Shown: one piece after another, positions 6,962 through 64,000 of the stretch
Layout of the letters: every line of letters starts with the position of its first letter
Numbering within the stretch: the first letter of the stretch is position 1
The notes under the pieces: generated by a model
Database searches by the model: none
Told to the model about the DNA's origin: nothing
The model's input: the letters and a program-made list of their open reading frames with translations, nothing else
Source of the DNA: Dehalococcoidia bacterium
GTDB taxonomy: Bacteria; Chloroflexota; Dehalococcoidia; UBA6926
Direction of reading: 5' to 3'
Assembly (NCBI GenBank): GCA_965243495.1
Contig: CBDEUZ010000007.1
Location: 295,743 to 359,742 of the forward strand
Length of the DNA: 64,000 bases
Program-made: the position numbers and the translations under genes

Positions 6962-7120
6962 CACTCTTTTTTCGTCATTCCCGCGAAAGCGGGAATCTGG
7001 AACGCGGAGCCCAACCGGTCACGGTAACGCCTCCCCTGCCATGCGCATACCGCCAAATACCTCTGCTACCCTATTGAAGACGTTTCCCCAGAGTCGCCAC
7101 ACAGGAGACACGAACACGCA

Positions 7121-7579
7121 ATGGCAGTAGAACGCACCCTCATCCTGATCAAGCCTGATGCCGTACAGCGCGGCCTGACGGGCGAAATTCTCGGACGTTT
7201 CGAGAAGCGCGGCCTCAAGATTGTCGGCGCAAAGTTCATGCGTGTTGAACGTGCGCTCGCAGAACAGCACTACGCCGAACACGTCGGCAAGCCATTCCTC
7301 CCCGGGCTGCTGGACTTCATCACGTCCTCGCCGTTGCTGGCGATGGTGTTGGAAGGAGAACGTGCCATCGAGCTTGCCCGTCAGACAATGGGAGCGACGG
7401 ATCCTGGAAAGGCCGCCACCGGCAGCATCCGTGCGGACCTCGGCTTGTCAGTTGGCTTGAACCTGGTCCACGGCTCGGACGGTGTTGAATCTGCGGCGCG
7501 CGAAGTGGCTCTCTGGTTCGACGAATCCGAGTTGATCGACTACCAACAGGCCACGGAGCAGTGGCTCATTGAATCCTGA
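7121..7579 (+). CDS. ndk: nucleoside-diphosphate kinase
   Basis: 152 aa, N-terminal ERTLILIKPDAVQRGL plus the catalytic His region. Confidence 0.95.
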   Translation: MAVERTLILIKPDAVQRGLTGEILGRFEKRGLKIVGAKFMRVERALAEQHYAEHVGKPFLPGLLDFITSSPLLAMVLEGERAIELARQTMGATDPGKAATGSIRADLGLSVGLNLVHGSDGVESAAREVALWFDESELIDYQQATEQWLIES

Positions 7580-13928: not shown

Positions 13929-14018
<90 letters not shown>

Positions 14019-14028
14019 TCCTAAAGAC

Positions 14029-14120
14029 GGAGAGGTGCTGGAGTGGCCGAACAGGCACGCCTGGAAAGCGTGTAGGGTCTTACCGGGCCCTCGCGGGTTC
14101 GAATCCCGCTCTCTCCGCCA
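14029..14120 (+). tRNA. tRNA-Ser (anticodon GGA)
   Basis: 92-nt class II tRNA. Anticodon loop CUGGAAA, long variable arm, T-loop GGTTCGAAT, encoded CCA. Confidence 0.9.
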
Positions 14121-14316: not shown

Positions 14317-15495
14317 GTGAACGACGATCTCCCATATTGGATAGCATTTCAGCGCGTCAGCAGGCTCGGCCGGGTCAGATTTGGACATCTCGAGTCGCAT
14401 TTCCCTACTCTGAAAGACGCTTGGCACGCATCAGAGTCGGAACTGCGCGCCACCCGTCTTGATCAACGTACGGTGGAGGAAATCCTTTCAACCCGCGTCG
14501 ACATCAACCCCGAGGATGAGCTTGAGAGACTGCACCGTCACCGAGTCACTGCCTACACCTGGCATGACGAGCAATACCCTGCCCGACTCCGGCAGATCCA
14601 TGACATGCCCCCCGTCCTGTACATCAAAGGAGAACTCAAACCCGAGGATGATCTTTCGATAGCCGTCGTTGGAACCCGCAAGGCCACGCCATACGGACGC
14701 GAGGTCACACGTGAATTCGTCCGAGACCTCGTGCAAGCAGGACTCACAATTGCCAGCGGACTCGCCGCCGGCATAGACTCAACAGCTCACTACGCCACCC
14801 TGCAGAACCGGGGCAGAACAATCGCCGTCCTCGGCAGTGGCGTGGACATCATCTATCCCGCGCAGAACCGCAAGATGGCCGCAGAAATCGTGGAGAACGG
14901 CGCGCTCATCAGCGACTACCCAATCGGTACGCCACCCATGAAAGAAAACTTCCCGCGCCGCAACCGCATTATGAGCGGCATCAGCCTTGGCTGTCTCGTC
15001 ATCGAGGGGAATGAGAAAAGCGGCGCTTTGATTACTGCCCGGCAGGCCCTTGAGCAAAACAGAGAGGTCTTTGCCGTCCCCGGCAGCGCCCTCAGCGAGC
15101 GGAGCCGCGGCCCCAACCTACTCATTCAGAACGGCGAGGCGAAACTCGTGCTGACCACTGAGGACATCCTGCAGGAGCTGAACCTGTCTCAGGAGGACCG
15201 GCAGCTGAATCTTCCGTCCACGACTGAGCCGGTTGACGAAGAACAGGCCGCCGTCCTCAGGGTTCTCAGCCGTTCCCCCATCCACATTGATGAGATCTAT
15301 CGGGCCTCCGGAATGTCCATGCCTGAAGTATCCAGTACCCTGACTATGCTGGAACTGAATGACCTCGTAAGGCAGGTTGGCGGAATGCACTACGTCTTGA
15401 CACGAGAGGCTCATGCGATTTACGAATCTCATAAGGGAACCAGTGACGACGGACAACAGGCGGAAGCCATGACCGCTGAAAATCAGCGCACCTGA
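14317..15495 (+). CDS. dprA: DNA-processing protein DprA
   Basis: 392 aa with a Rossmann-like core (VVGTRKATPYGREVTREF ... AGIDSTAHYATL ... IIYP). Confidence 0.9.
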   Translation: MNDDLPYWIAFQRVSRLGRVRFGHLESHFPTLKDAWHASESELRATRLDQRTVEEILSTRVDINPEDELERLHRHRVTAYTWHDEQYPARLRQIHDMPPVLYIKGELKPEDDLSIAVVGTRKATPYGREVTREFVRDLVQAGLTIASGLAAGIDSTAHYATLQNRGRTIAVLGSGVDIIYPAQNRKMAAEIVENGALISDYPIGTPPMKENFPRRNRIMSGISLGCLVIEGNEKSGALITARQALEQNREVFAVPGSALSERSRGPNLLIQNGEAKLVLTTEDILQELNLSQEDRQLNLPSTTEPVDEEQAAVLRVLSRSPIHIDEIYRASGMSMPEVSSTLTMLELNDLVRQVGGMHYVLTREAHAIYESHKGTSDDGQQAEAMTAENQRT

Positions 15496-15510
15496 AGAGG
15501 CAAAAAGCGA

Positions 15511-17802
15511 ATGACAACCGGTCGAAAGAAGTCGACGACTACACGGAAGACGAAGAAGGCCTCTGCTTCAAGCAATGGCCGCGCAAGCGGTCGCTCATCG
15601 ACGGCGCGGCGAACGAGCAGTTCATCCGGCTCTAACGCGGCACGCGGCGGCGATGTCGTCATCGTCGAGTCTCCTGCCAAGGCCCGCACACTCTCACGCA
15701 TCCTCGGCAACGGCTACAACGTCCTGGCCTCCGTCGGGCACGTCCGCGACCTGCCCAAGAGCAAGATGGCTATCGACGTGGAAAATGATTTCACGCCGGA
15801 TTACGTCGTGCCGCGTGACAAGTCCTCCGTCGTCAAGGAGATCAAGGCCGCCGCAAATGCCGCGGACACCGTTTACCTCGCAACAGACCCTGACCGTGAG
15901 GGAGAGGCCATCTCATGGCACCTAATGGAAGCCGCCGGCATCCCGCAGGAAAGGATGCGCCGGGTCGTCTTTCATGAGGTGACGGAGAACGCAGTCCGCC
16001 GCGCCTTTGACGAGCCGCGCGGCATCGATGTCGATCTTGTCAACGCCTATCAGGCCAGACGTGTCCTTGACCGCCTCGTCGGATACCGCCTCAGCCCGGT
16101 CCTCTGGAGCAAGGTGCGCAAGGGACTGTCCGCAGGCCGTGTCCAATCCGCTGCTCTCCGGCTTGTCGTTGAACGCGAAGCGGAAATCGACGCATTTGTG
16201 CCGCAGGAGTACTGGGAAATCGACGCGAACCTTGCGACACAGGCCGAACAGGCAGAAGACTTTGCTGCCCGGTATCGGGCGGAGCTAGGCGCAAGCCGTG
16301 CTGTCAACATTCCGAATCAGGAAATGGCTGACAGAATTCTCGCCGATTTGCGAGCAAGCAGCTACCAGGTCGAGTCTGTCCGCCGTCGCGAGACAACGCG
16401 CCGTCCCGGACCGCCCTTCATCACCTCTACCCTCCAGCAAGAGGCGTTCCGCAAACTGCGCTTCACCGCCCGCCGGACTATGACCATCGCGCAGCAGCTC
16501 TATGAGGGCCTGCCCATCGGCAATGAAGGCCCAATCGGTCTCATCACCTACATGCGCACCGACTCAACCAACATGGCAAACGAGGCCGTGCAGGAAGCGC
16601 GCGCCGTCATCAGCAACCGCTACGGCAAGGATCACGTCCCCGCCTCTCCCAGGTCCTTCTCGCGCCGTGTCAAGGGAGCGCAGGAAGCCCATGAGGCTAT
16701 CCGCCCCACGTCCTTCATGCGTGACCCGGAGTCGCTGCGAAACTCCCTGAGCCGCGAGCAATTCAACCTCTACCAGCTCATCTGGCAGCGCGCCCTCGCT
16801 TCGCAGACGGCTGACGCAAAGTTCGATCAGACCACCGTCGACATCACGGCCTCCGGCGCGCCGTCCGGCACAAGCCACACCCTCCGCGCCAGCGGCTCCA
16901 TCATGACCTTTGCAGGCTATCTCGCAATCTATCGTGAGGGCCTTGATGAGCCGGATCCGGAGTCCGATGAAGGGCGAGTGCTCCCGGATCTACGTGAGGC
17001 ACAACCGCTAGACATGCGAAACGTCGCGGGAACCCAGCGTTTCACGCAGCCCCCGCCCCGCTATACCGAGGCTACGCTGATACGAGCGTTGGAAGAGCGC
17101 GGCATCGGCCGACCCAGTACTTATGCCGCCATCCTCAGCACCATCCAGGACCGCGGCTACGTGGACAAAGCCGATAACCGCTTCCGACCCCTCAAGCTCG
17201 GTACGGCGGTATCCGGCCTCCTCTCCGAGTATTTCCCGCAGGTTTCCAGCCTTGACTTCACCTCCCGTATCGAGGAGGAGCTCGACGACGTTGCCCGCGG
17301 GGAGCGGGAGTGGGTGCCTGTGTTGCGTGATTTCTACGGGCCCTTCAATGAACGTATCGACACCGCGCAGGAAAAAATCGAGCGTGTTCGCAACATCGAC
17401 GAGGAAACTGATGAGGCGTGCCCGGAGTGCGATGCGAACATGGTTATCAAGCGTGGCCGCTACGGCCCGTTCCTCTCCTGCTCGCGATTCCCTGACTGCC
17501 GCGGCATGAAGCGCATCCAGAAAAGCACGGGGGCCAATTGCCCGAACTGCAGCGGCGAACTGGTGCAACGATCATCCCGCAAGTCCCGCCGCCCCTTCTA
17601 CGGCTGCTCCAACTACCCCAACTGCAACTTCCTCACCAACCAGGAGCCGTTGCCCCAGCCCTGCCCCGACTGCGGCGGCCTCGTTGTTGCCTCAAGTCGA
17701 ACCAATGCGACATGCAACGACAAGGAATGCGGCTGGCAGGGTTCCCGCGAGGAACTCACCGCAGAACAGCCGCAAGCGGAACCCCAACTCGTCGAAGTCT
17801 GA
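15511..17802 (+). CDS. topA: DNA topoisomerase I
   Basis: 763 aa. TOPRIM N-terminus (VVIVESPAKARTLSRILG), the active-site Tyr region, and C-terminal Cys4 zinc ribbons (CPECDANM..., CPNCSGEL..., CPDCGG...). Confidence 0.95.
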   Translation: MTTGRKKSTTTRKTKKASASSNGRASGRSSTARRTSSSSGSNAARGGDVVIVESPAKARTLSRILGNGYNVLASVGHVRDLPKSKMAIDVENDFTPDYVVPRDKSSVVKEIKAAANAADTVYLATDPDREGEAISWHLMEAAGIPQERMRRVVFHEVTENAVRRAFDEPRGIDVDLVNAYQARRVLDRLVGYRLSPVLWSKVRKGLSAGRVQSAALRLVVEREAEIDAFVPQEYWEIDANLATQAEQAEDFAARYRAELGASRAVNIPNQEMADRILADLRASSYQVESVRRRETTRRPGPPFITSTLQQEAFRKLRFTARRTMTIAQQLYEGLPIGNEGPIGLITYMRTDSTNMANEAVQEARAVISNRYGKDHVPASPRSFSRRVKGAQEAHEAIRPTSFMRDPESLRNSLSREQFNLYQLIWQRALASQTADAKFDQTTVDITASGAPSGTSHTLRASGSIMTFAGYLAIYREGLDEPDPESDEGRVLPDLREAQPLDMRNVAGTQRFTQPPPRYTEATLIRALEERGIGRPSTYAAILSTIQDRGYVDKADNRFRPLKLGTAVSGLLSEYFPQVSSLDFTSRIEEELDDVARGEREWVPVLRDFYGPFNERIDTAQEKIERVRNIDEETDEACPECDANMVIKRGRYGPFLSCSRFPDCRGMKRIQKSTGANCPNCSGELVQRSSRKSRRPFYGCSNYPNCNFLTNQEPLPQPCPDCGGLVVASSRTNATCNDKECGWQGSREELTAEQPQAEPQLVEV

Positions 17803-17982: not shown

Positions 17983-19032
17983 ATGGCACTCAAACCTGCA
18001 CCCACCCTGAACCAACCCGCGGACGCCGCGCCAATTCCTCAGGAGTGGGCGGCTCGGCTCAACGACTTCGCCGTGTTCCTTGAATACGAACGCGGCGCGT
18101 CTCGCTACACCCTCCGCAATTACATGGGCGACATCGGCCTCTTCCTGCAATTCCTGGCAGAAGAGGGTGTTACACGCCTGCCAAACGCCACACGCGACCA
18201 CGCCCAACGTTGGGTCTATGACCTGACGATGGACGGCTCCGCCCGCTCCTCCATCGCCCGCCGCCTCTCAGCGCTCCGCTCCTTCTGGCGCTTTCTCGCG
18301 CGAGAGGGCGTCATTGAAAACCCGGAAACCATCACAAAGACACCCTCACCCAAGATCGGCCGACGACTGCCGGACCTCCTCTCCGAACGTGACGCCGAGC
18401 GGCTTGTCCATGCGCCACTGCGATTCGCGGAGAGCATTGATGCTGCAACCGTGGACAGGCAGCAGGCCCTGCAGCGCGCCCTCGCCCTGCGAGACCATGC
18501 GGTATTGGAACTCGCCTACGGCGCAGGTCTGCGTGTGGCGGAAATCGCCTCGTTGGACATGGCAGGGCTTGATCTCCGTAATCGCGTCGCCCGGGTCTGG
18601 GGCAAACGCTCCAAGCAGCGTGAGACTCTCTTTGGGGAACCTTGCCGAGAGGCCCTCGCCATGTATCTCAACGATGCCCGCCCCCTGCTTGCCCACGGCA
18701 TCAGAACGCGTGCCGCGGTCTTCCTCAATAGCCGTGGTGGTCGGCTGACCACGCGCGGCATTGAACTCTCCCTCAAAAAGTGGGCTCGTGCAGAGGGCCT
18801 CCCGGAAGATATCCACCCCCATACTCTCCGCCACTCCTTTGCCACCCATATGCTGGACGGCGGCGCTGATCTAAGGCTCGTCCAGGAAATGCTCGGGCAC
18901 GCCTCAGTCGCCACCACGGAAATCTATACCCACGTCTCGCAAGCGCAGATGGCGCAGGCCTATGCCCGTGCACACCCGGGCATGAACCGCGACGATGATA
19001 GTGAATCTCAACGAAACACCGTTGCCGACTGA
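17983..19032 (+). CDS. site-specific tyrosine recombinase (XerC/XerD family)
   Basis: 349 aa, C-terminal catalytic motifs HTLRHSFATHMLDGGADLRLVQEMLGHASVATTEIYTHV. Confidence 0.85.
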   Translation: MALKPAPTLNQPADAAPIPQEWAARLNDFAVFLEYERGASRYTLRNYMGDIGLFLQFLAEEGVTRLPNATRDHAQRWVYDLTMDGSARSSIARRLSALRSFWRFLAREGVIENPETITKTPSPKIGRRLPDLLSERDAERLVHAPLRFAESIDAATVDRQQALQRALALRDHAVLELAYGAGLRVAEIASLDMAGLDLRNRVARVWGKRSKQRETLFGEPCREALAMYLNDARPLLAHGIRTRAAVFLNSRGGRLTTRGIELSLKKWARAEGLPEDIHPHTLRHSFATHMLDGGADLRLVQEMLGHASVATTEIYTHVSQAQMAQAYARAHPGMNRDDDSESQRNTVAD

Positions 19033-58096: not shown

Positions 58097-58576
58097 TCAG
58101 CGCAGGATGCCCCTTCTTTCCTTGGGTGCGTGGCAATACCACACCCGGCCCGCAATGGCATGACGCGCGACAGGCCCAAATGCGCGACTGTCCCTACTGT
58201 CACCACGATTATCGCCGAGGAGAACGAATTCATCCTCGCCTGTTATCCACTCATCCCTATCGCCGGAATTCGGCCTCGACGGAGCGCGTGAGACATACGC
58301 CTCCGGAAGTGGTTCGCCGTTCACATAGATAGCGCCGTCTACCATCGCGATGCGCTCATTCGGCAGACCGCAGATCCGCTTGATAGATACTCCTCCGGAT
58401 TCGGGTTCGCTGAATGCCACAACGTCACTCCTTTGCGGCACACCACCGGAGAAACGCCGAGACACCAGAACCATGTCGCCCTCCAGAAGATATGGTTCCA
58501 TGCTATGGCCGGTCACGCGGAACCTGAGGGAACTGAACAGATCCAGCAGGCGTGGAGGATGCAGCCACCAGGGCAT
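58097..58576 (-). CDS. sodX: S26-family peptidase, Ni-SOD maturation protease SodX-like
   Basis: 159 aa with Ser/Lys dyad motifs (GHSMEPYLLEGDMVLV ... KRICGLPNERI). It is divergently adjacent to sodN, as in Streptomyces. Confidence 0.8.
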   Translation of the reverse strand: MPWWLHPPRLLDLFSSLRFRVTGHSMEPYLLEGDMVLVSRRFSGGVPQRSDVVAFSEPESGGVSIKRICGLPNERIAMVDGAIYVNGEPLPEAYVSRAPSRPNSGDRDEWITGEDEFVLLGDNRGDSRDSRAFGPVARHAIAGRVWYCHAPKERRGILR

Positions 58577-58695: not shown

Positions 58696-59190
58696 ATGTC
58701 CGCACTCAGTATAGCCCTAAGGGCGATCGAAAGGTTCTCACCCGCCAAGCCGGCGAACGCGCACTGTGATATTCCGTGTGGCATCTATGATCCACACGCG
58801 GCGCAGATTGCGGCTCACACGGTGGTGCGGATGGTGAATCTGATCGAAGATCTGGGCGAGGTTTCAGACGCGGAGTCGCGCAACAAGCTCATACGCTACA
58901 TCGCCGTCAAGGAAGAGCATGCTGAGCTCGCCAAGAAGGAGCTCCGCATCCTGTGGGGCGACTATTTCCGCCCCGAGCACCTGGAGCAGCATCCAAACCT
59001 GCACAACCTGTTCTTCACAGCGATGAAGCAGGGCTCCGCCGCGCGGCAGAGCGTCAGTATGGACAACGCTCAGGCGCTTGTGTCGACGGTGCAGGAGATC
59101 GCTGAGATTTTCTGGGCGACCAAGGGCGCCGAGACATCTCGACAGCCGTCTCGTCAGACTTCCGGCGGGGAGATCGTCTATCCGGCATAA
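58696..59190 (+). CDS. sodN: nickel-containing superoxide dismutase precursor
   Basis: 164 aa. A 23-aa leader is followed by the Ni-hook HCDIPCGIYDP. The rest is co-linear with Streptomyces SodN (…ELAKKELRILWGDYFRPEH…). Confidence 0.9.
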   Translation: MSALSIALRAIERFSPAKPANAHCDIPCGIYDPHAAQIAAHTVVRMVNLIEDLGEVSDAESRNKLIRYIAVKEEHAELAKKELRILWGDYFRPEHLEQHPNLHNLFFTAMKQGSAARQSVSMDNAQALVSTVQEIAEIFWATKGAETSRQPSRQTSGGEIVYPA

Positions 59191-60359: not shown

Positions 60360-61382
60360 ATGATCGTCGTAATGCGCACTGACGCAACACAAGAAAACGT
60401 AGACGGCGTTGTCGAGAAGATTCAAGAACTTGGCTATCGGGCCGACGTGGAGCCCGGCGAGTTCACCAGTGTTGTTGCCGTCATCGGTGACACGACTGCG
60501 GGAGGCGATGACGTCCTGAGAATCCTGCCGGGTGTGGATCACGTAGTCCGCATCATGAAGCCGTATAAGCATGTGAGCCGTGATTTTCGAAAGCGGGACA
60601 CCATAGTTGATTTGCCGAATGGCGTGAAAATTGGCCCGAGCGCGCCGGTGGCCATGATGGTGGGACCGTGTGCGGTGGAGTCCGAAGAGCAGGTGCGACA
60701 GGTTGCTGAAATGGACCGGAAACTCGGCTTCACCATTCTTCGCGGCGGCGCGTTCAAGCCACGCACCTCGCCGTACACGTTCCAGGGGCTGGGCCTTGAG
60801 GGACTGCGCATCCTGAGGAATGTCGCAGATGAGTACGGTCTGATGGTCATCACAGAAGTGATGTCTGAGATGGACGTGGAAATGTGCGAGGAATACGCCG
60901 ACATCCTCCAGATCGGCGCTCGCACCATGCACGCGTTCCGGCTGCTCAAGACCGTCGGACAAACGCGCAAGCCGGTTTTGCTGAAGCGCGGATTCCACGC
61001 CACCATCCGCGAGTGGCTGCTGAGCGCTGAGTACATCATCAGCGAGGGCAATTGGAACGTCATCATGTGTGAGCGCGGCATCCGCAGCTTTGACGATGAG
61101 TTCTCACGAAACGTCCTTGATCTGACGGCCGTGCAGATACTCAAAAGAGAGAGCCACCTGCCTGTCGTTGTTGATCCCAGCCACGGCACGGGTGAGCGTG
61201 ATCTGGTAATGCCAATGGCGAAGGCTGCCATCGCAGCAGGAGCGGACGGGCTTATCATCGAAGCGCACCCCGACCCTACGACGGCGCTTTCTGATGGAGC
61301 GCAGTCTCTGCCAGTGGACTGGCTGCCGGAGTTGCAGAAGCAGGTCAACGGCATTGCCAAAGCAATTGGACGGGAGGTCTAG
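60360..61382 (+). CDS. aroF: 3-deoxy-7-phosphoheptulonate (DAHP) synthase, type I-beta with N-terminal regulatory domain
   Basis: 340 aa, KPRTSPYTFQGLG and the (beta/alpha)8 core. GGAGG Shine-Dalgarno. Confidence 0.9.
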   Translation: MIVVMRTDATQENVDGVVEKIQELGYRADVEPGEFTSVVAVIGDTTAGGDDVLRILPGVDHVVRIMKPYKHVSRDFRKRDTIVDLPNGVKIGPSAPVAMMVGPCAVESEEQVRQVAEMDRKLGFTILRGGAFKPRTSPYTFQGLGLEGLRILRNVADEYGLMVITEVMSEMDVEMCEEYADILQIGARTMHAFRLLKTVGQTRKPVLLKRGFHATIREWLLSAEYIISEGNWNVIMCERGIRSFDDEFSRNVLDLTAVQILKRESHLPVVVDPSHGTGERDLVMPMAKAAIAAGADGLIIEAHPDPTTALSDGAQSLPVDWLPELQKQVNGIAKAIGREV

Positions 61383-61475
61383 GGCAAAGGAGTCTCAGCA
61401 TTCTTCGCTGCGCTCGGAATGACATGGCGCGGGGCATGACGTGAGAAGGCGGTGGTCAGTAGAATGCGTAGCAAC

Positions 61476-61562
61476 GGCAGGATGGCGGAGTGGACAAACG
61501 CACCAGGCTGTAAACTTGGCGCCCTAAGGGCTACGGGGGTTCGAATCCCTCTCCTGCCACCA
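61476..61562 (+). tRNA. tRNA-Tyr (anticodon GTA)
   Basis: 87-nt class II tRNA. Acceptor GGCAGGA/TCCTGCC, anticodon loop CUGUAAA, long variable arm, T-loop GGTTCGAAT, encoded CCA. A TAGAAT -10-like hexamer lies 10 nt upstream. Confidence 0.9.
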
Positions 61563-61597: not shown

Positions 61598-63640
61598 GTG
61601 ATGTTGTTTGAACTTTCAGACGACCTGCTGAAGCGGCACCCAACGTATGTTGTGGGCGTCGTATTCGTGCGTGGCGCGGCCAAGCCCTCCCAAGAAAACG
61701 TCAGCGCACTCCAACGCGCGCTGCAGGAGGCGGCACAGGCTGTGCCCTGGAAGCTTGGCGGGGCCGGGTTGCACGGCCATCCGGCAATTACTCGTTGGGA
61801 GCAGGCCTTTGAGGCAGAGGGAATCAACCCGCGAACTCATATGCCGTCGATCGCGGCCCTCGCCCAGCGGTGCCTGCGCGGCGACTATATTCGGTTAATC
61901 AACACTGCGACAGATATTGCCAACCTTATTTCTTTGAGACACCTCGTCCCCGTCGGAGCGCATGATGTAGATCGGCTGCCGGGAGACATTGCTGTGCGCT
62001 TGAGCACCGAAGGGGACACGTACACGGGTTCCGCTGATGATGAAACCGAAGAACTACCCTCCGGCGAACCCGTGTACGCAACGGGTAGCGATATTCGGAC
62101 CCGTCGCTGGGTATGGCGGCAGGCTGAAGCGGCCATGACGACGCCGGAGAGCAGCACGATCGTCTATCCGGTCGACGGCTTCATGGACGGAACTGCTGAC
62201 CGCGTGGAAACGGCGACCCAGGAGCTGGCGCTGTTAGCCAAGGCTGCCCTGGGCGGAGATGTTTCTTACGGCTATGTGAGCGTCGACAATCCTTCGCTTC
62301 CTGAGGATGATGCTTCGCTGACCCAGGTGAATGAAGTTGAGGCGGCCACTGCCCTGCTATTATCCCTCGGGTCAGCAGATGAAGGCGCCGAATCATACCC
62401 ATCCCCGCCTGCGGATGAGGCGCTCGCCAAATGGTCGCTATCTGATCTACTCCGCCGGGGAATCCTGGACGGCGTGATTGTTGAAGAAGAACTGCAGAAG
62501 GACCTCGATTCTGACCGGCGTCTCACCATCTACGAGGGGTTTGATCCGACAAGCACCAGCCTTCACATCGGCCACTATCTTTCGTTGCGCGTCTTGCGAT
62601 GGTTCCAGTTGCAGGGCCACCGCGTAATCATGCTGTTCGGTGACTTCACTGCCCGCATCGGCGATCCAACAGGCCAATCAGCGGAACGCCAACAACTCAC
62701 GCAAGACCAGGTGCTCGCCAACGCCCAGGAGTGGCAGGCGCAGGTATCACATGTGCTCGACCTGGGTGGAGACAACCCCGTTGAAATCAAGTGGAATGGT
62801 GAATGGCTGGACCGGCTCACACTGCGAGACATGATCGAAATCTCGGCGAACATGACGGTACAACAGCTCATAGAACGGGACATGTTCCAGGAACGACTCT
62901 CACAGCAACGTCCCCTCCATCTACATGAGACGCTTTACCCGCTGCTGCAGGGTTACGACTCTGTGGCGATGAGCGTAGACGCAGAGCTTGGCGGTCGTGA
63001 CCAAATGTTCAATATGATGGTCGGGCGAGACCTTGTACGGAATTACAGTGGCAAGACGAAGCATGTGCTGATGACGCCGCTCATCCCGGGTCTCGATGGC
63101 CGCAAGATGAGCAAGTCATATGGGAACACGGTCGACCTCACCGAGAATTCTGTCGACATGTTCTTCAAACTGACACAGGTGAGCGATGAATTGCTGCCGA
63201 TGTTTATGAGCGTTCTCACGGACACGCCGGACGAGGAGATCGAAGAGATTCGCCTCCGCCTGTCATCTGAGTCCAATCTGCAGGACGCCCGGGAGCGTTT
63301 CGCATGGGCCGTCACAGAGCGCTTGCACGGCGCCGATGAAGCGCAACGAGCGCAGGCAGAATTCACACGTGTGGTGGATGAAGGCAACATGCGACAAGAC
63401 GTGGAGGAGGTATTCCTGAAACCCCCGACGGAGCCTCTGACCATTCTGGACGTTGCAGTGGCGACAGGCCTGGCTACGAGCCGGGGCGATGCACGCCGCC
63501 TCATCCAGCAAGGTGGTCTTGAGATAAACGACCGCCGCCACACCGAGCCCACGCTGCAGCTCTCGCCGGAGGACGTGGAAGGAGCAATCGTCAAGATGGG
63601 CAAGCGCGGATTCGTGCGGATGAAGGTGGATCGCGCATGA
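61598..63640 (+). CDS. tyrS: tyrosine--tRNA ligase fused to an N-terminal solo-B3/4 (PheT editing-like, COG3382-type) domain
   Basis: 680 aa in one frame. Residues ~290-680 are TyrRS (HIGH = LHIGHY, KMSKS = KMSKSYGN, C-terminal S4-like). Residues 1-~270 match B3/4-domain motifs (HMPSIAALAQRCLRG..INTATDIANLISLRHLVPVGAHDVDRLPGDIAVRLSTEGDTYT ... GEPVYATGSDIRTRRWVWRQAE). No candidate start codon separates the two parts. Confidence 0.85.
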   Translation: MMLFELSDDLLKRHPTYVVGVVFVRGAAKPSQENVSALQRALQEAAQAVPWKLGGAGLHGHPAITRWEQAFEAEGINPRTHMPSIAALAQRCLRGDYIRLINTATDIANLISLRHLVPVGAHDVDRLPGDIAVRLSTEGDTYTGSADDETEELPSGEPVYATGSDIRTRRWVWRQAEAAMTTPESSTIVYPVDGFMDGTADRVETATQELALLAKAALGGDVSYGYVSVDNPSLPEDDASLTQVNEVEAATALLLSLGSADEGAESYPSPPADEALAKWSLSDLLRRGILDGVIVEEELQKDLDSDRRLTIYEGFDPTSTSLHIGHYLSLRVLRWFQLQGHRVIMLFGDFTARIGDPTGQSAERQQLTQDQVLANAQEWQAQVSHVLDLGGDNPVEIKWNGEWLDRLTLRDMIEISANMTVQQLIERDMFQERLSQQRPLHLHETLYPLLQGYDSVAMSVDAELGGRDQMFNMMVGRDLVRNYSGKTKHVLMTPLIPGLDGRKMSKSYGNTVDLTENSVDMFFKLTQVSDELLPMFMSVLTDTPDEEIEEIRLRLSSESNLQDARERFAWAVTERLHGADEAQRAQAEFTRVVDEGNMRQDVEEVFLKPPTEPLTILDVAVATGLATSRGDARRLIQQGGLEINDRRHTEPTLQLSPEDVEGAIVKMGKRGFVRMKVDRA

Positions 63641-64000
63641 GTTTCGATAGACCGACGGTCGGATTTCTCCAGCCGGAGGCGACCTTCACCCACCTCGCGG
63701 CCATCGCTCACTTTGGCCGGGACGCCATCTTCGAACCGATGGAGTCGGAGGCAATCTGCCAGGCCGTTCAGCAGGGTGAGATTGAATACGGCGTACTGCC
63801 TATCGAGAACCTGCTTGAAGGGACCGTAGGAGCGACGCTGGACTTCGTGACGGCGACGGAGGGTATCAATGTGGTGGCTGAAGTCTTCTTGCCCATTCAC
63901 CACCACCTGCTGACCAAGACATCACTGGAACAGGTAACACGCATCTACTCACATCCGCAGGCATTGAGCCAGTGCCGGCGGAGCATCCGGCGCTTGTCGG
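63637..64000 (+). CDS. pheA: prephenate dehydratase (N-terminal part, continues past the window end)
   Basis: The ATG overlaps the tyrS TGA (ATGA). PDT N-terminal motif VGFLQPEATFTHLAA. Confidence 0.85.
   Translation, partial: MSFDRPTVGFLQPEATFTHLAAIAHFGRDAIFEPMESEAICQAVQQGEIEYGVLPIENLLEGTVGATLDFVTATEGINVVAEVFLPIHHHLLTKTSLEQVTRIYSHPQALSQCRRSIRRLS

Follow-up and report, generated by a model that had tools for sequence, protein, structure and literature searches.

A B3/4 domain is fused in frame to a complete tyrosyl-tRNA synthetase

We analysed a 64,000-nucleotide (nt) stretch of DNA from a Dehalococcoidia bacterium (assembly GCA_965243495.1, contig CBDEUZ010000007.1, positions 295,743 to 359,742; hereafter, the window), in which the gene for tyrosyl-tRNA synthetase (TyrRS) encodes an additional N-terminal domain of the B3/4 type. 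The gene is a single, uninterrupted open reading frame (ORF) at 61598..63640 on the plus strand, with 680 amino acids (aa) counted from a GTG at 61598. Translation almost certainly begins at the ATG at 61601 (679 aa), because an identical 679-aa protein (P0194, on a 1,980,353-bp NCBI contig) starts there, because close relatives (e.g. locus L010) lack the preceding GTG, and because a GAGG lies 8 nt upstream of the ATG. An exact database look-up of the 680-aa, GTG-initiated form gave no match; the database entry begins at the ATG. Residue numbers throughout count from the GTG.

Pfam assigns aa 67–205 to B3_4 (E=1.4e-19; 70.8 bits, gathering threshold 29.3), aa 306–591 to tRNA-synt_1b (E=1.9e-64) and aa 611–672 to SYY_C/S4 (PF22421, PF01479), while the NCBIfam equivalog model for tyrS, TIGR00234, matches aa 282–677 with 325.7 bits (cutoff 113.8). 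Between the two halves, aa 236–281 contain 10 Asp/Glu, one Lys/Arg and three Pro. Within aa 225–312, the only start-type codons are three GTGs (aa 227, 244 and 293), all of which lack a Shine-Dalgarno-like motif at normal spacing. An earlier note on this DNA, made from the letters of the window, had described an N-terminal B3/4 domain joined in frame, through an acidic linker, to a complete TyrRS with no plausible internal start. The ORF, the above-threshold B3_4 match and the full set of TyrRS hallmarks (TIGR00234, HIGH, KMSKS and the S4-like domain; Table 1) bear out that architecture and do not place the N-terminal region in an unrelated family. The estimate of ~270 aa for the domain was slightly too large: its structured part spans ~258 aa, and the disordered tether only ~20 aa.

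A one-genome-per-species (GTDB) scan with an alignment of the N-terminal domain returned 151 relatives, the best 80 of which were analysed for ORFs; genome loci were selected with the peptide TRRWVWRQ. An unbroken fusion ORF of 678–696 aa is found in 21 species-representative Dehalococcoidia genomes (L004–L024), in which the TyrRS part is 63–95% identical to that of the window protein and the B3/4 part 46–82%. Fourteen loci in Chloroflexia/Chloroheliaceae, including Ca. Chlorohelix, encode fusions of 640–692 aa; two of these loci (L037 and L042) lie on short contigs, and their ORF is cut by the contig end or lacks a start. A Chloroflexota metagenome-assembled genome (L026) encodes a 638-aa fusion. 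One further ORF (L025) ends at a contig edge after 206 aa and is probably another fusion, because a gene for 3-deoxy-D-arabino-heptulosonate 7-phosphate (DAHP) synthase lies upstream, as it does in the window. Hence, the survey shows that the fusion recurs in Dehalococcoidia, Chloroflexia and other Chloroflexota. Standalone B3/4 proteins also exist, as the earlier note had said: ~43 loci among the best 80 of the 151 relatives encode proteins of 231–248 aa, in Thermomicrobiales, Chloroflexia, Anaerolineae, Bacillota and Nocardia niwae. Sources of solo homologues include Thermomicrobium, Nitrolancea, Symbiobacterium and Thermalbibacter longus.

Protein databases give the same picture. About 90 of the best 120 clusters matching the window protein combine PF03483 with PF00579, as do 120 of the best 120 clusters matching a Chloroflexia-type fusion, and fusions are present in >200 protein clusters overall. 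An exhaustive search identified ~1,900 relatives of the B3/4 module, and in the corresponding 50%-identity library all 14 fusion-length representatives checked were B3_4+TyrRS by Pfam. Where the source annotation names these fusion proteins, it calls them only “tyrosine--tRNA ligase”.

Could the fusion be two adjacent genes joined through an error of assembly, annotation or sequencing? Three low-coverage long-read metagenome contigs (L001–L003) are indeed full of frameshifts, but the frameshifts lie away from the junction, which is read through in frame. An unbroken ORF is seen in 36 independent genomes at species level, closed chromosomes among them, and in hundreds of protein clusters, and there is no internal start with a ribosome binding site. 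These observations refute the idea, to which we assign a practically negligible probability, and they exclude a frameshift or stop separating two genes. Median ratios of nonsynonymous to synonymous substitution rates (dN/dS) across 22 Dehalococcoidia species are 0.154 for the B3/4 domain, 0.258 for the linker, the least constrained segment of the protein, and 0.059 for TyrRS. Fifty-five positions are invariant in aa 1–235, and four in aa 236–281. The fusion is thus real, old and maintained, and its B3/4 module is under purifying selection, with retention of residues that are essential in the related deacylase CtdA. In a neighbour-joining tree of the domains, TyrRS fusions fall at three spots among the standalone proteins, at a resolution too low to tell one fusion event from several.

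Table 1. The fusion gene, its parts and other features of the window
Feature	Position	Strand	Basis or remark
B3/4-TyrRS fusion gene	61601..63640	+	679 aa from ATG; ORF opens with GTG at 61598 (680 aa)
CtdA-like B3/4 domain	61598..62371	+	structured aa 1-258; Pfam B3_4 core 61796-62212 (aa 67-205)
Asn109	61922..61924	+	equivalent to CtdA N105 and E. coli PheT N254; >=90% conserved in alignment A2
P118-V-G120-A-H122-D123	61949..61966	+	CtdA has P-V-G116-G-E118-N; pocket Glu replaced by His
R167-T168-R-R-W-V172-W-R-Q175	62096..62122	+	CtdA has T-C166-R-R-W-N-W-R-Q173; Cys166 replaced by Thr, Gln kept
P191-V-D193-G-F	62168..62182	+	CtdA has I-L-E191-S-L; second pocket Glu replaced by Asp
Acidic, Pro-containing disordered tether	62372..62440	+	aa 259-281; low pLDDT, composition
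Complete Thermus-type TyrRS body	62441..63637	+	aa 282-680; TIGR00234
HIGH	62564-62575	+	aa 323-326
KMSKS	63104-63118	+	aa 503-507
S4-like C-terminal domain	63428-63613	+	aa 611-672
tRNA-Tyr (GTA), long variable arm, encoded CCA	61476..61562	+	ARAGORN; Rfam RF00005, 57.9 bits
Weak sigma-70-like promoter match	61436..61465	+	consensus scan 9/12; pattern match only, upstream of tRNA-Tyr
DAHP synthase (FXD regulatory domain + DAHP_synth_1)	60360..61382	+	Pfam; synteny kept across Dehalococcoidia loci
pheA start (prephenate dehydratase + ACT)	63637..64000, runs off window	+	translation; Pfam PDT+ACT on syntenic L004 gene (8040-8921)
Nickel superoxide dismutase SodN	58696-59190	+	divergent from S26 peptidase
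S26-family peptidase (SodX-like)	58097-58576	-	divergent from SodN
Two tRNA-Ser genes	13929-14120		upstream of DprA cluster
DprA	14317-15495		housekeeping cluster
Topoisomerase I	15511-17802		housekeeping cluster
XerC/D-type tyrosine recombinase	17983-19032		housekeeping cluster

The N-terminal domain belongs with the CtdA deacylases

CtdA is a standalone enzyme that hydrolyses canavanyl-tRNAArg (PMC10018355). Searched as a single sequence, the N-terminal domain matches the CtdA structure 9f7e with E=2.9e-10 and the beta subunit of phenylalanyl-tRNA synthetase (PheRS beta, or PheT) with 3e-3. A profile of its subfamily, searched against the PDB, matches CtdA far more strongly (9f7e, E=5.7e-35 over the full length; 9mkl, 2.6e-31) than PheRS beta (~1e-4). 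An AlphaFold 2 (AF2) model of the domain has a predicted local distance difference test score (pLDDT) of 91.1 and a predicted template modelling score (pTM) of 0.88. With this model, Foldseek ranks CtdA 9mkl and 9f7e first (E~1e-16, TM-score 0.86) and bacterial PheRS beta next (E~3e-8). By sequence and predicted fold, the domain belongs with the standalone CtdA deacylase family. The description of the domain as “PheRS-editing-like” in the earlier note was therefore right about the B3/4 fold, which the model reproduces, but PheRS beta is a far more distant relative than CtdA.

The module shares with CtdA its fold, homology over the full length at 20–22% identity, a size of ~230 aa, and the essential Asn, Gly and Gln residues; it differs in being fused to TyrRS, whereas CtdA stands alone, and in five substitutions (E118 to His, E191 to Asp, C166 to Thr, Y104 to Ala and N170 to Val). 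The B3/4 domain of PheT belongs to the same PF03483 fold superfamily, shares the Asn that holds the catalytic water, and is likewise part of a synthetase, in which it acts in cis as a post-transfer editing module. In contrast to CtdA, its sequence relation to our module is marginal (E~1e-4 to 1e-3), and it is embedded in a multidomain subunit rather than tethered to a class I TyrRS. Pfam and NCBIfam detected no other PheT domain (B1, B5, FDX-ACB etc.) in the fusion protein. The likeness does not extend to the PheT editing site: among R244, N254, Y255, H265, F267, A312, G318 and E334, only N254 has a kept equivalent (N109), and under the CtdA–PheT mapping of PMC12449066, H265 becomes Gly120 and G318 becomes Gln175.

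The CtdA family has been divided into a characterised branch, CtdA-1, and an uncharacterised one, CtdA-2. The latter, known from Chloroflexi, Bacillota and archaea, shares ~20% identity with CtdA-1; it retains N105 and G116 but not C166, and the authors describe its substrate specificity as “yet to be determined” (PMC12449066). The module described here fits all four descriptors (distribution, ~20% identity, N105/G116 kept, C166 lost) and is a candidate member of that clade.

The pocket keeps the essential residues of CtdA but has been remodelled

We assigned pocket residues by alignment to CtdA 9f7e and with reference to published mutagenesis. CtdA is inactivated by mutation of N105 (as N105A), G116 or Q173 (PMC12449066), and all three of these inactivation-sensitive residues are retained, as N109, G120 and Q175. 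The deep part of the pocket differs. E118 and E191, deep-pocket residues that CtdA requires (PMC12268091), are replaced by H122 and D193, and N119, next to E118, is replaced by D123. C166, which sets specificity between canavanine and arginine, is T168 in the module; since the C166S form of CtdA is still active (PMC12449066), a threonine here is plausibly compatible with catalysis. Finally, Y104, which is catalytically important in CtdA, and N170 are replaced by smaller residues, A108 and V172. The result would be an enlarged pocket with a His/Asp pair at its bottom, an arrangement compatible with hydrogen bonding to a ring hydroxyl.

H122, D123, D193, N109 and T168 are each at least 90% conserved in A2, an alignment based on an unbiased homology search. 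All Dehalococcoidia fusions share these five residues, and the Chloroflexia fusions show only one change among them (D123N in L047). C166, E118, E191 and Y104 are replaced in every TyrRS-fused member examined, so these proteins are not expected to deacylate canavanyl-tRNAArg. The His-Asp modules thus form a paralogous subfamily of the CtdA family.

The TyrRS body looks like an ordinary housekeeping enzyme

The best PDB match of the TyrRS body is T. thermophilus TyrRS (1h3e, E=8.2e-75). The tyrosine-binding motifs IYEGFDPT (Y-x-GFDPT), YPLLQGYD and GGRDQ are present and are invariant in alignment A3; in B. stearothermophilus numbering, the tyrosine-binding residues are Tyr34, Tyr169, Gln173, Asp176 and Gln195. 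The closest unfused TyrRSs are those of other Dehalococcoidia, at 53–55% identity. We considered the idea that fused TyrRS bodies have relaxed specificity, and rejected it, since comparison with the nearest unfused bodies revealed no active-site change; the sole discriminating position, T573 (Val in the unfused enzymes), lies outside the active site. The TyrRS body looks like the product of an ordinary housekeeping tyrS that has gained a domain, and not like a specialised paralogue. This role is supported indirectly by orthology to unfused Dehalococcoidia TyrRSs, by the dN/dS of 0.059 and by the tRNA-Tyr gene directly upstream.

In the fusions of Chloroflexia/Chloroheliaceae (L034, L036, L039, L040, L042, L043, L047, L048, L050, L055, L057, L060 and L082), HIGH is changed to HIGR and KMSKS to KMSTS, yet these proteins score 327–353 bits with the tyrS equivalog model. 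KMSTS recalls the KMSSS motif of human TyrRS. One relative of 481 aa (P0111) has a His-Asp B3/4 module on a degenerate TyrRS-like body in which HIGH and KMSKS are lost and the S4-like domain is kept. Judging from its motifs, P0111 may be a deacylase that retains just the tRNATyr-binding parts of TyrRS.

CtdA-like modules on other synthetases have pockets that match their partners

The exhaustive search also revealed B3/4 modules fused to two other synthetases. P0155 (891 aa) has one N-terminal module on a bona fide arginyl-tRNA synthetase (ArgRS), and P0092 (1124 aa) has two. Two proteins are fusions to class II lysyl-tRNA synthetase (LysRS): P0190 (730 aa), whose module is C-terminal, and P0113 (390 aa), whose module is N-terminal and whose LysRS is truncated. 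In P0155, P0190 and P0113, the pocket is of the CtdA-1 type (Y-N, G-(G/A)-E, Cys, Glu), with Ala at the second Gly in P0113. Both modules of P0092 keep Y-N and G-G-E and have lost the Cys and the second Glu. Every TyrRS-fused module examined has the His/Asp/Thr/Asp signature instead.

This pattern suggests that the pocket tracks the fusion partner, such that the partner indicates the tRNA and the pocket the amino acid. If so, tRNATyr would be the target of the His-Asp modules. The ArgRS fusion serves as a natural positive control, since CtdA corrects an error of ArgRS; P0155 itself looks like a natural cis-editing ArgRS, and we found no mention of the P0155 and P0092 fusions in the CtdA papers covered by our literature search. 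The LysRS-fused modules possibly target a basic analogue of lysine or arginine. Of the indirect arguments for proofreading, we regard this covariation of partner and pocket as the strongest. The module also occurs outside synthetases: in P0163 (417 aa), a GNAT acetyltransferase domain is joined to a B3/4 module that has a G-G-F-D motif and a Glu at position 193.

The fusion gene lies in an aromatic amino-acid setting

The tRNA-Tyr gene ends shortly upstream of the fusion gene, at a distance of 35 nt from the GTG and 38 nt from the ATG, and no plus-strand terminator-like site was found between the two in the window. In 19 Dehalococcoidia loci, the tRNA-Tyr gene precedes the fusion by 17–39 nt; the distance is 108 nt in L022 and 307 nt in L023. 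Hence, the tRNA and its synthetase gene probably form one transcript. An Rfam scan of the window found only tRNAs, with no T-box or other leader. Downstream, a 4-nt ATGA overlap between tyrS and pheA is conserved in 20 of the 21 Dehalococcoidia loci. tRNA-Tyr and pheA are thus conserved, and probably co-transcribed, partners of the fusion gene.

The array of DAHP synthase, tRNA-Tyr, B3/4-tyrS and pheA is an aromatic amino-acid setting and not an oxidative-stress one. The earlier note had linked the module to neighbouring oxidative-stress genes, a link that we consider weak: SodN and the SodX-like peptidase form a separate divergent pair >2 kb from the fusion gene, with two minus-strand ORFs between, and their synteny with tyrS is kept among close relatives only. 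Chloroflexia fusions lack the tRNA context, so the context, but not the fusion, is lineage-specific.

The setting bears on a second possible role, in which the module clears the error of another synthetase, for instance Tyr- or meta-tyrosyl (m-Tyr)-tRNAPhe, and is fused to TyrRS merely for co-expression with genes for aromatic amino acids. In favour of this role, the fusion gene follows that for DAHP synthase and is coupled in translation to pheA; the His/Asp pocket could bind a tyrosyl ring; and the B3/4 fold is ancestrally tied to hydrolysis of Tyr- and m-Tyr-tRNAPhe (PMC12449066). However, the PheT editing residues are not conserved, CtdA and its mutants fail to rescue the loss of PheRS editing (PMC12449066), and the pockets fused to ArgRS and LysRS suit the substrates of their own partners. 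Moreover, fusion places the module beside tRNATyr and not tRNAPhe, and the Chloroflexia fusions occur without the pheA/tRNA context. We therefore consider such trans-editing quite improbable.

The standalone genes give no comparable clue. No tyrS lies within 6 kb of a solo B3/4 gene, and the neighbourhoods of 43 solo genes contain no tyrosine-related hint; hibernation-promoting factor (HPF), a GT4 glycosyltransferase and SecA were seen. Thermomicrobiales/Chloroflexia loci such as L041, L052, L054, L063, L074 and L081 share an order of ribosome hibernation factor-like gene, GT4 glycosyltransferase and B3/4 gene, then SecA on the opposite strand, with neighbour identities judged by eye from sequence. 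In Bacillota, a gene for a YbaK/INS-type deacylase homologue (7002–7460, minus strand, in L028; also in L027 and L035) is convergent with a solo His-Asp B3/4 gene ~300 nt away, an arrangement that would put two putative trans-editing factors side by side.

Elsewhere in the window, ORFs at 14317–17802 were considered as pheS/pheT and rejected; they encode DprA and topoisomerase I (Table 1). Closed Dehalococcoidia chromosomes with the fusion include OZ241912.1, OY762213.1, OZ242203.1, OZ242019.1 and OZ244736.1. Many of the fusion-bearing Dehalococcoidia genomes are closed chromosomes of ~1.9 Mb, and the isolate names of several metagenome-assembled genomes (APA_bin_32, SB0661_bin_39, Plut_88869) suggest marine invertebrate hosts. 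These bacteria may be a clade of sponge or coral symbionts. Some sponges are rich in brominated tyrosines, but a connection between these compounds and the fusion is speculative, because the fusion is also present in Chloroflexia from soil and freshwater.

A proposed role in clearing tyrosine analogues from tRNATyr

What is the function of an editing-type domain on TyrRS? We propose that the fusion protein is the organism's ordinary TyrRS with a CtdA/B3-4 aminoacyl-tRNA deacylase module flexibly tethered at its N-terminus, and that the module clears a mischarged tyrosine analogue from tRNATyr. We put the probability of this reading at roughly 60%. The TyrRS body would bind and esterify tRNATyr. 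When a tyrosine look-alike escapes the synthetic site, the tethered B3/4 pocket would capture the 3ʹ end of the aminoacylated tRNA and hydrolyse the look-alike ester, in cis or on release, as post-transfer editing. Cognate L-Tyr-tRNATyr would be left intact. That the module is catalytic, that it acts on tRNATyr and which amino acid it removes are all predictions. The full-length AF2 model, with a mean pLDDT of 87.9, is confident in both halves, but its pTM is only 0.60. The tether has a pLDDT of ~53–58 in both AF2 models, falls below 50 at residues 260–265, and is predicted to be disordered at 260–270. The models suggest a mobile module on a tether of ~20 residues, as expected for an editing module.

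Many synthetases carry non-catalytic appended domains, and the module could have lost hydrolysis to become an extra tRNA-binding, chaperoning or regulatory (e.g. amino-acid-sensing) appendage of TyrRS. The full-length model has a pTM of 0.60 and shows no fixed contact of the module with the synthetic site, and some relatives are degenerate on the TyrRS side, as P0111 is; both observations could be accommodated by a non-catalytic appendage. Nonetheless, the module keeps the residues on which catalysis by CtdA depends, and the pocket is the most conserved part of the domain, in fusions and standalone proteins down to ~30% identity. An invariant, buried set of His, Asp, Asp, Asn and Gln would be needless for mere tRNA binding. 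Furthermore, we looked for the shedding of a basic tRNA-binding surface in the fused domains and found no difference in charge: solo domains and those fused in Dehalococcoidia both have a median isoelectric point of 5.4, and those fused in Chloroflexia one of 5.6. We conclude that a purely non-catalytic module is distinctly unlikely.

Several points weigh against the proposed deacylase role. The pocket reading depends on alignment to CtdA. In the locus table, residues 168–175 are invariant by construction, being the peptide (TRRWVWRQ) used to select the loci; H122, D123, D193 and alignment A2 are unaffected by this. A His/Asp pocket suited to a phenolic hydroxyl might equally bind L-Tyr, and this would be futile on a TyrRS. 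Finally, the same pocket is found in many standalone proteins that are not encoded beside tyrS, so it is the fusions that provide the link to tRNATyr.

If the module is a deacylase acting on tRNATyr, which amino acid does it remove? The TyrRS of E. coli, which has one active site and no proofreading site of its own, activates ring-substituted tyrosines, one of them at 2.7% of the efficiency of Tyr (PMC9050441). In E. coli, 3,4-dihydroxyphenylalanine (DOPA) is incorporated at Tyr positions, and m-Tyr and o-Tyr enter proteins through PheRS only (PMC9050441). For this reason, DOPA and 3-substituted tyrosines are likelier substrates than m-Tyr. The suggestion in the earlier note that the domain targets a near-cognate of tyrosine is thus retained as the best reading for an analogue such as a ring-modified tyrosine or D-Tyr, but m-Tyr, one of the candidates that it named, is unlikely. 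We would rank ring-modified tyrosines (3,4-DOPA, 3-halo- or 3-nitro-Tyr, and other natural tyrosine antimetabolites) first and D-Tyr second.

D-Tyr deserves separate mention, since the fusion could be a special case of the proposed scheme: a D-Tyr-tRNATyr hydrolase built into the synthetase, in place of or in addition to D-aminoacyl-tRNA deacylase (DTD). A ring-binding pocket that selects for chirality would explain recognition by His/Asp without a futile cycle. TyrRS forms D-Tyr-tRNATyr (cited in PMC10018355), and this classical TyrRS error is normally cleared by DTD (PMC6765224; PMC10018355). On the other hand, we know of no B3/4 or CtdA member that is chirality-selective. Solo members occur in Bacillota and Actinomycetota, lineages that usually have DTD. 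Overall, we consider a dedicated D-Tyr hydrolase unlikely, though a possibility to be kept in mind.

DTD and the high-selectivity TyrRS paralogue TyrZ are known answers to D-Tyr, the main documented error of TyrRS, and are possible functional analogues of the module. Both are unrelated to it in fold; DTD acts in trans on many tRNAs, and TyrZ sharpens selection in the synthetic site and does not hydrolyse the product. An evolutionary parallel is offered by other appended or inserted synthetase editing domains (CP1 of Ile/Leu/ValRS, INS of ProRS, N2 of ThrRS, and that of AlaRS, with the standalone YbaK/ProXp, AlaX and ThrRS-ed), for which one hydrolytic fold exists both alone, as a trans-editing factor, and as part of the synthetase whose error it corrects. 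These domains have a different fold, and the host in our case, TyrRS, is an enzyme not known to have an editing domain.

Implications

To our knowledge, TyrRS is usually described without a proofreading module and is a textbook case of reliance on the synthetic site alone; as far as we know, TyrRS, ArgRS and LysRS are all held to lack editing domains. We found no description of the B3/4-TyrRS architecture in the searchable literature, which omits most subscription journals, and the view of the earlier note that it is uncharacterised agrees with this. A deacylase-mining paper (Nat Chem 2026) concerns another fold. The protein is a known hydrolytic editing fold on a synthetase that was not known to have one, widespread in Chloroflexota and hidden under a generic annotation.

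In its broadest form, our proposal is that the His-Asp CtdA-like clade (probably CtdA-2) is dedicated to proofreading of tRNATyr and is built into TyrRS across much of Chloroflexota, and that the CtdA fold is a portable editing cassette plugged into at least three synthetases (TyrRS, ArgRS and LysRS), with the pocket retuned each time. We consider the arguments for and against this wider generalization to be about evenly balanced. If it holds, the association of partner and pocket could help to annotate the ~1,900 relatives of the module. The fusions also provide a handle on the function of CtdA-2, since the fusion partner nominates tRNATyr and so leaves a short list of substrates.

If the proposed activity is correct, no natural TyrRS before this one would have had a hydrolytic editing domain to its name, and a natural analogue-rejecting TyrRS would be of interest to genetic-code engineers. 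An editing-type domain under selection on the housekeeping TyrRS of a phylum would change the picture of an enzyme that relies on its synthetic site alone, and would imply that translation in these bacteria faces a tyrosine-like threat that has gone unrecognised.

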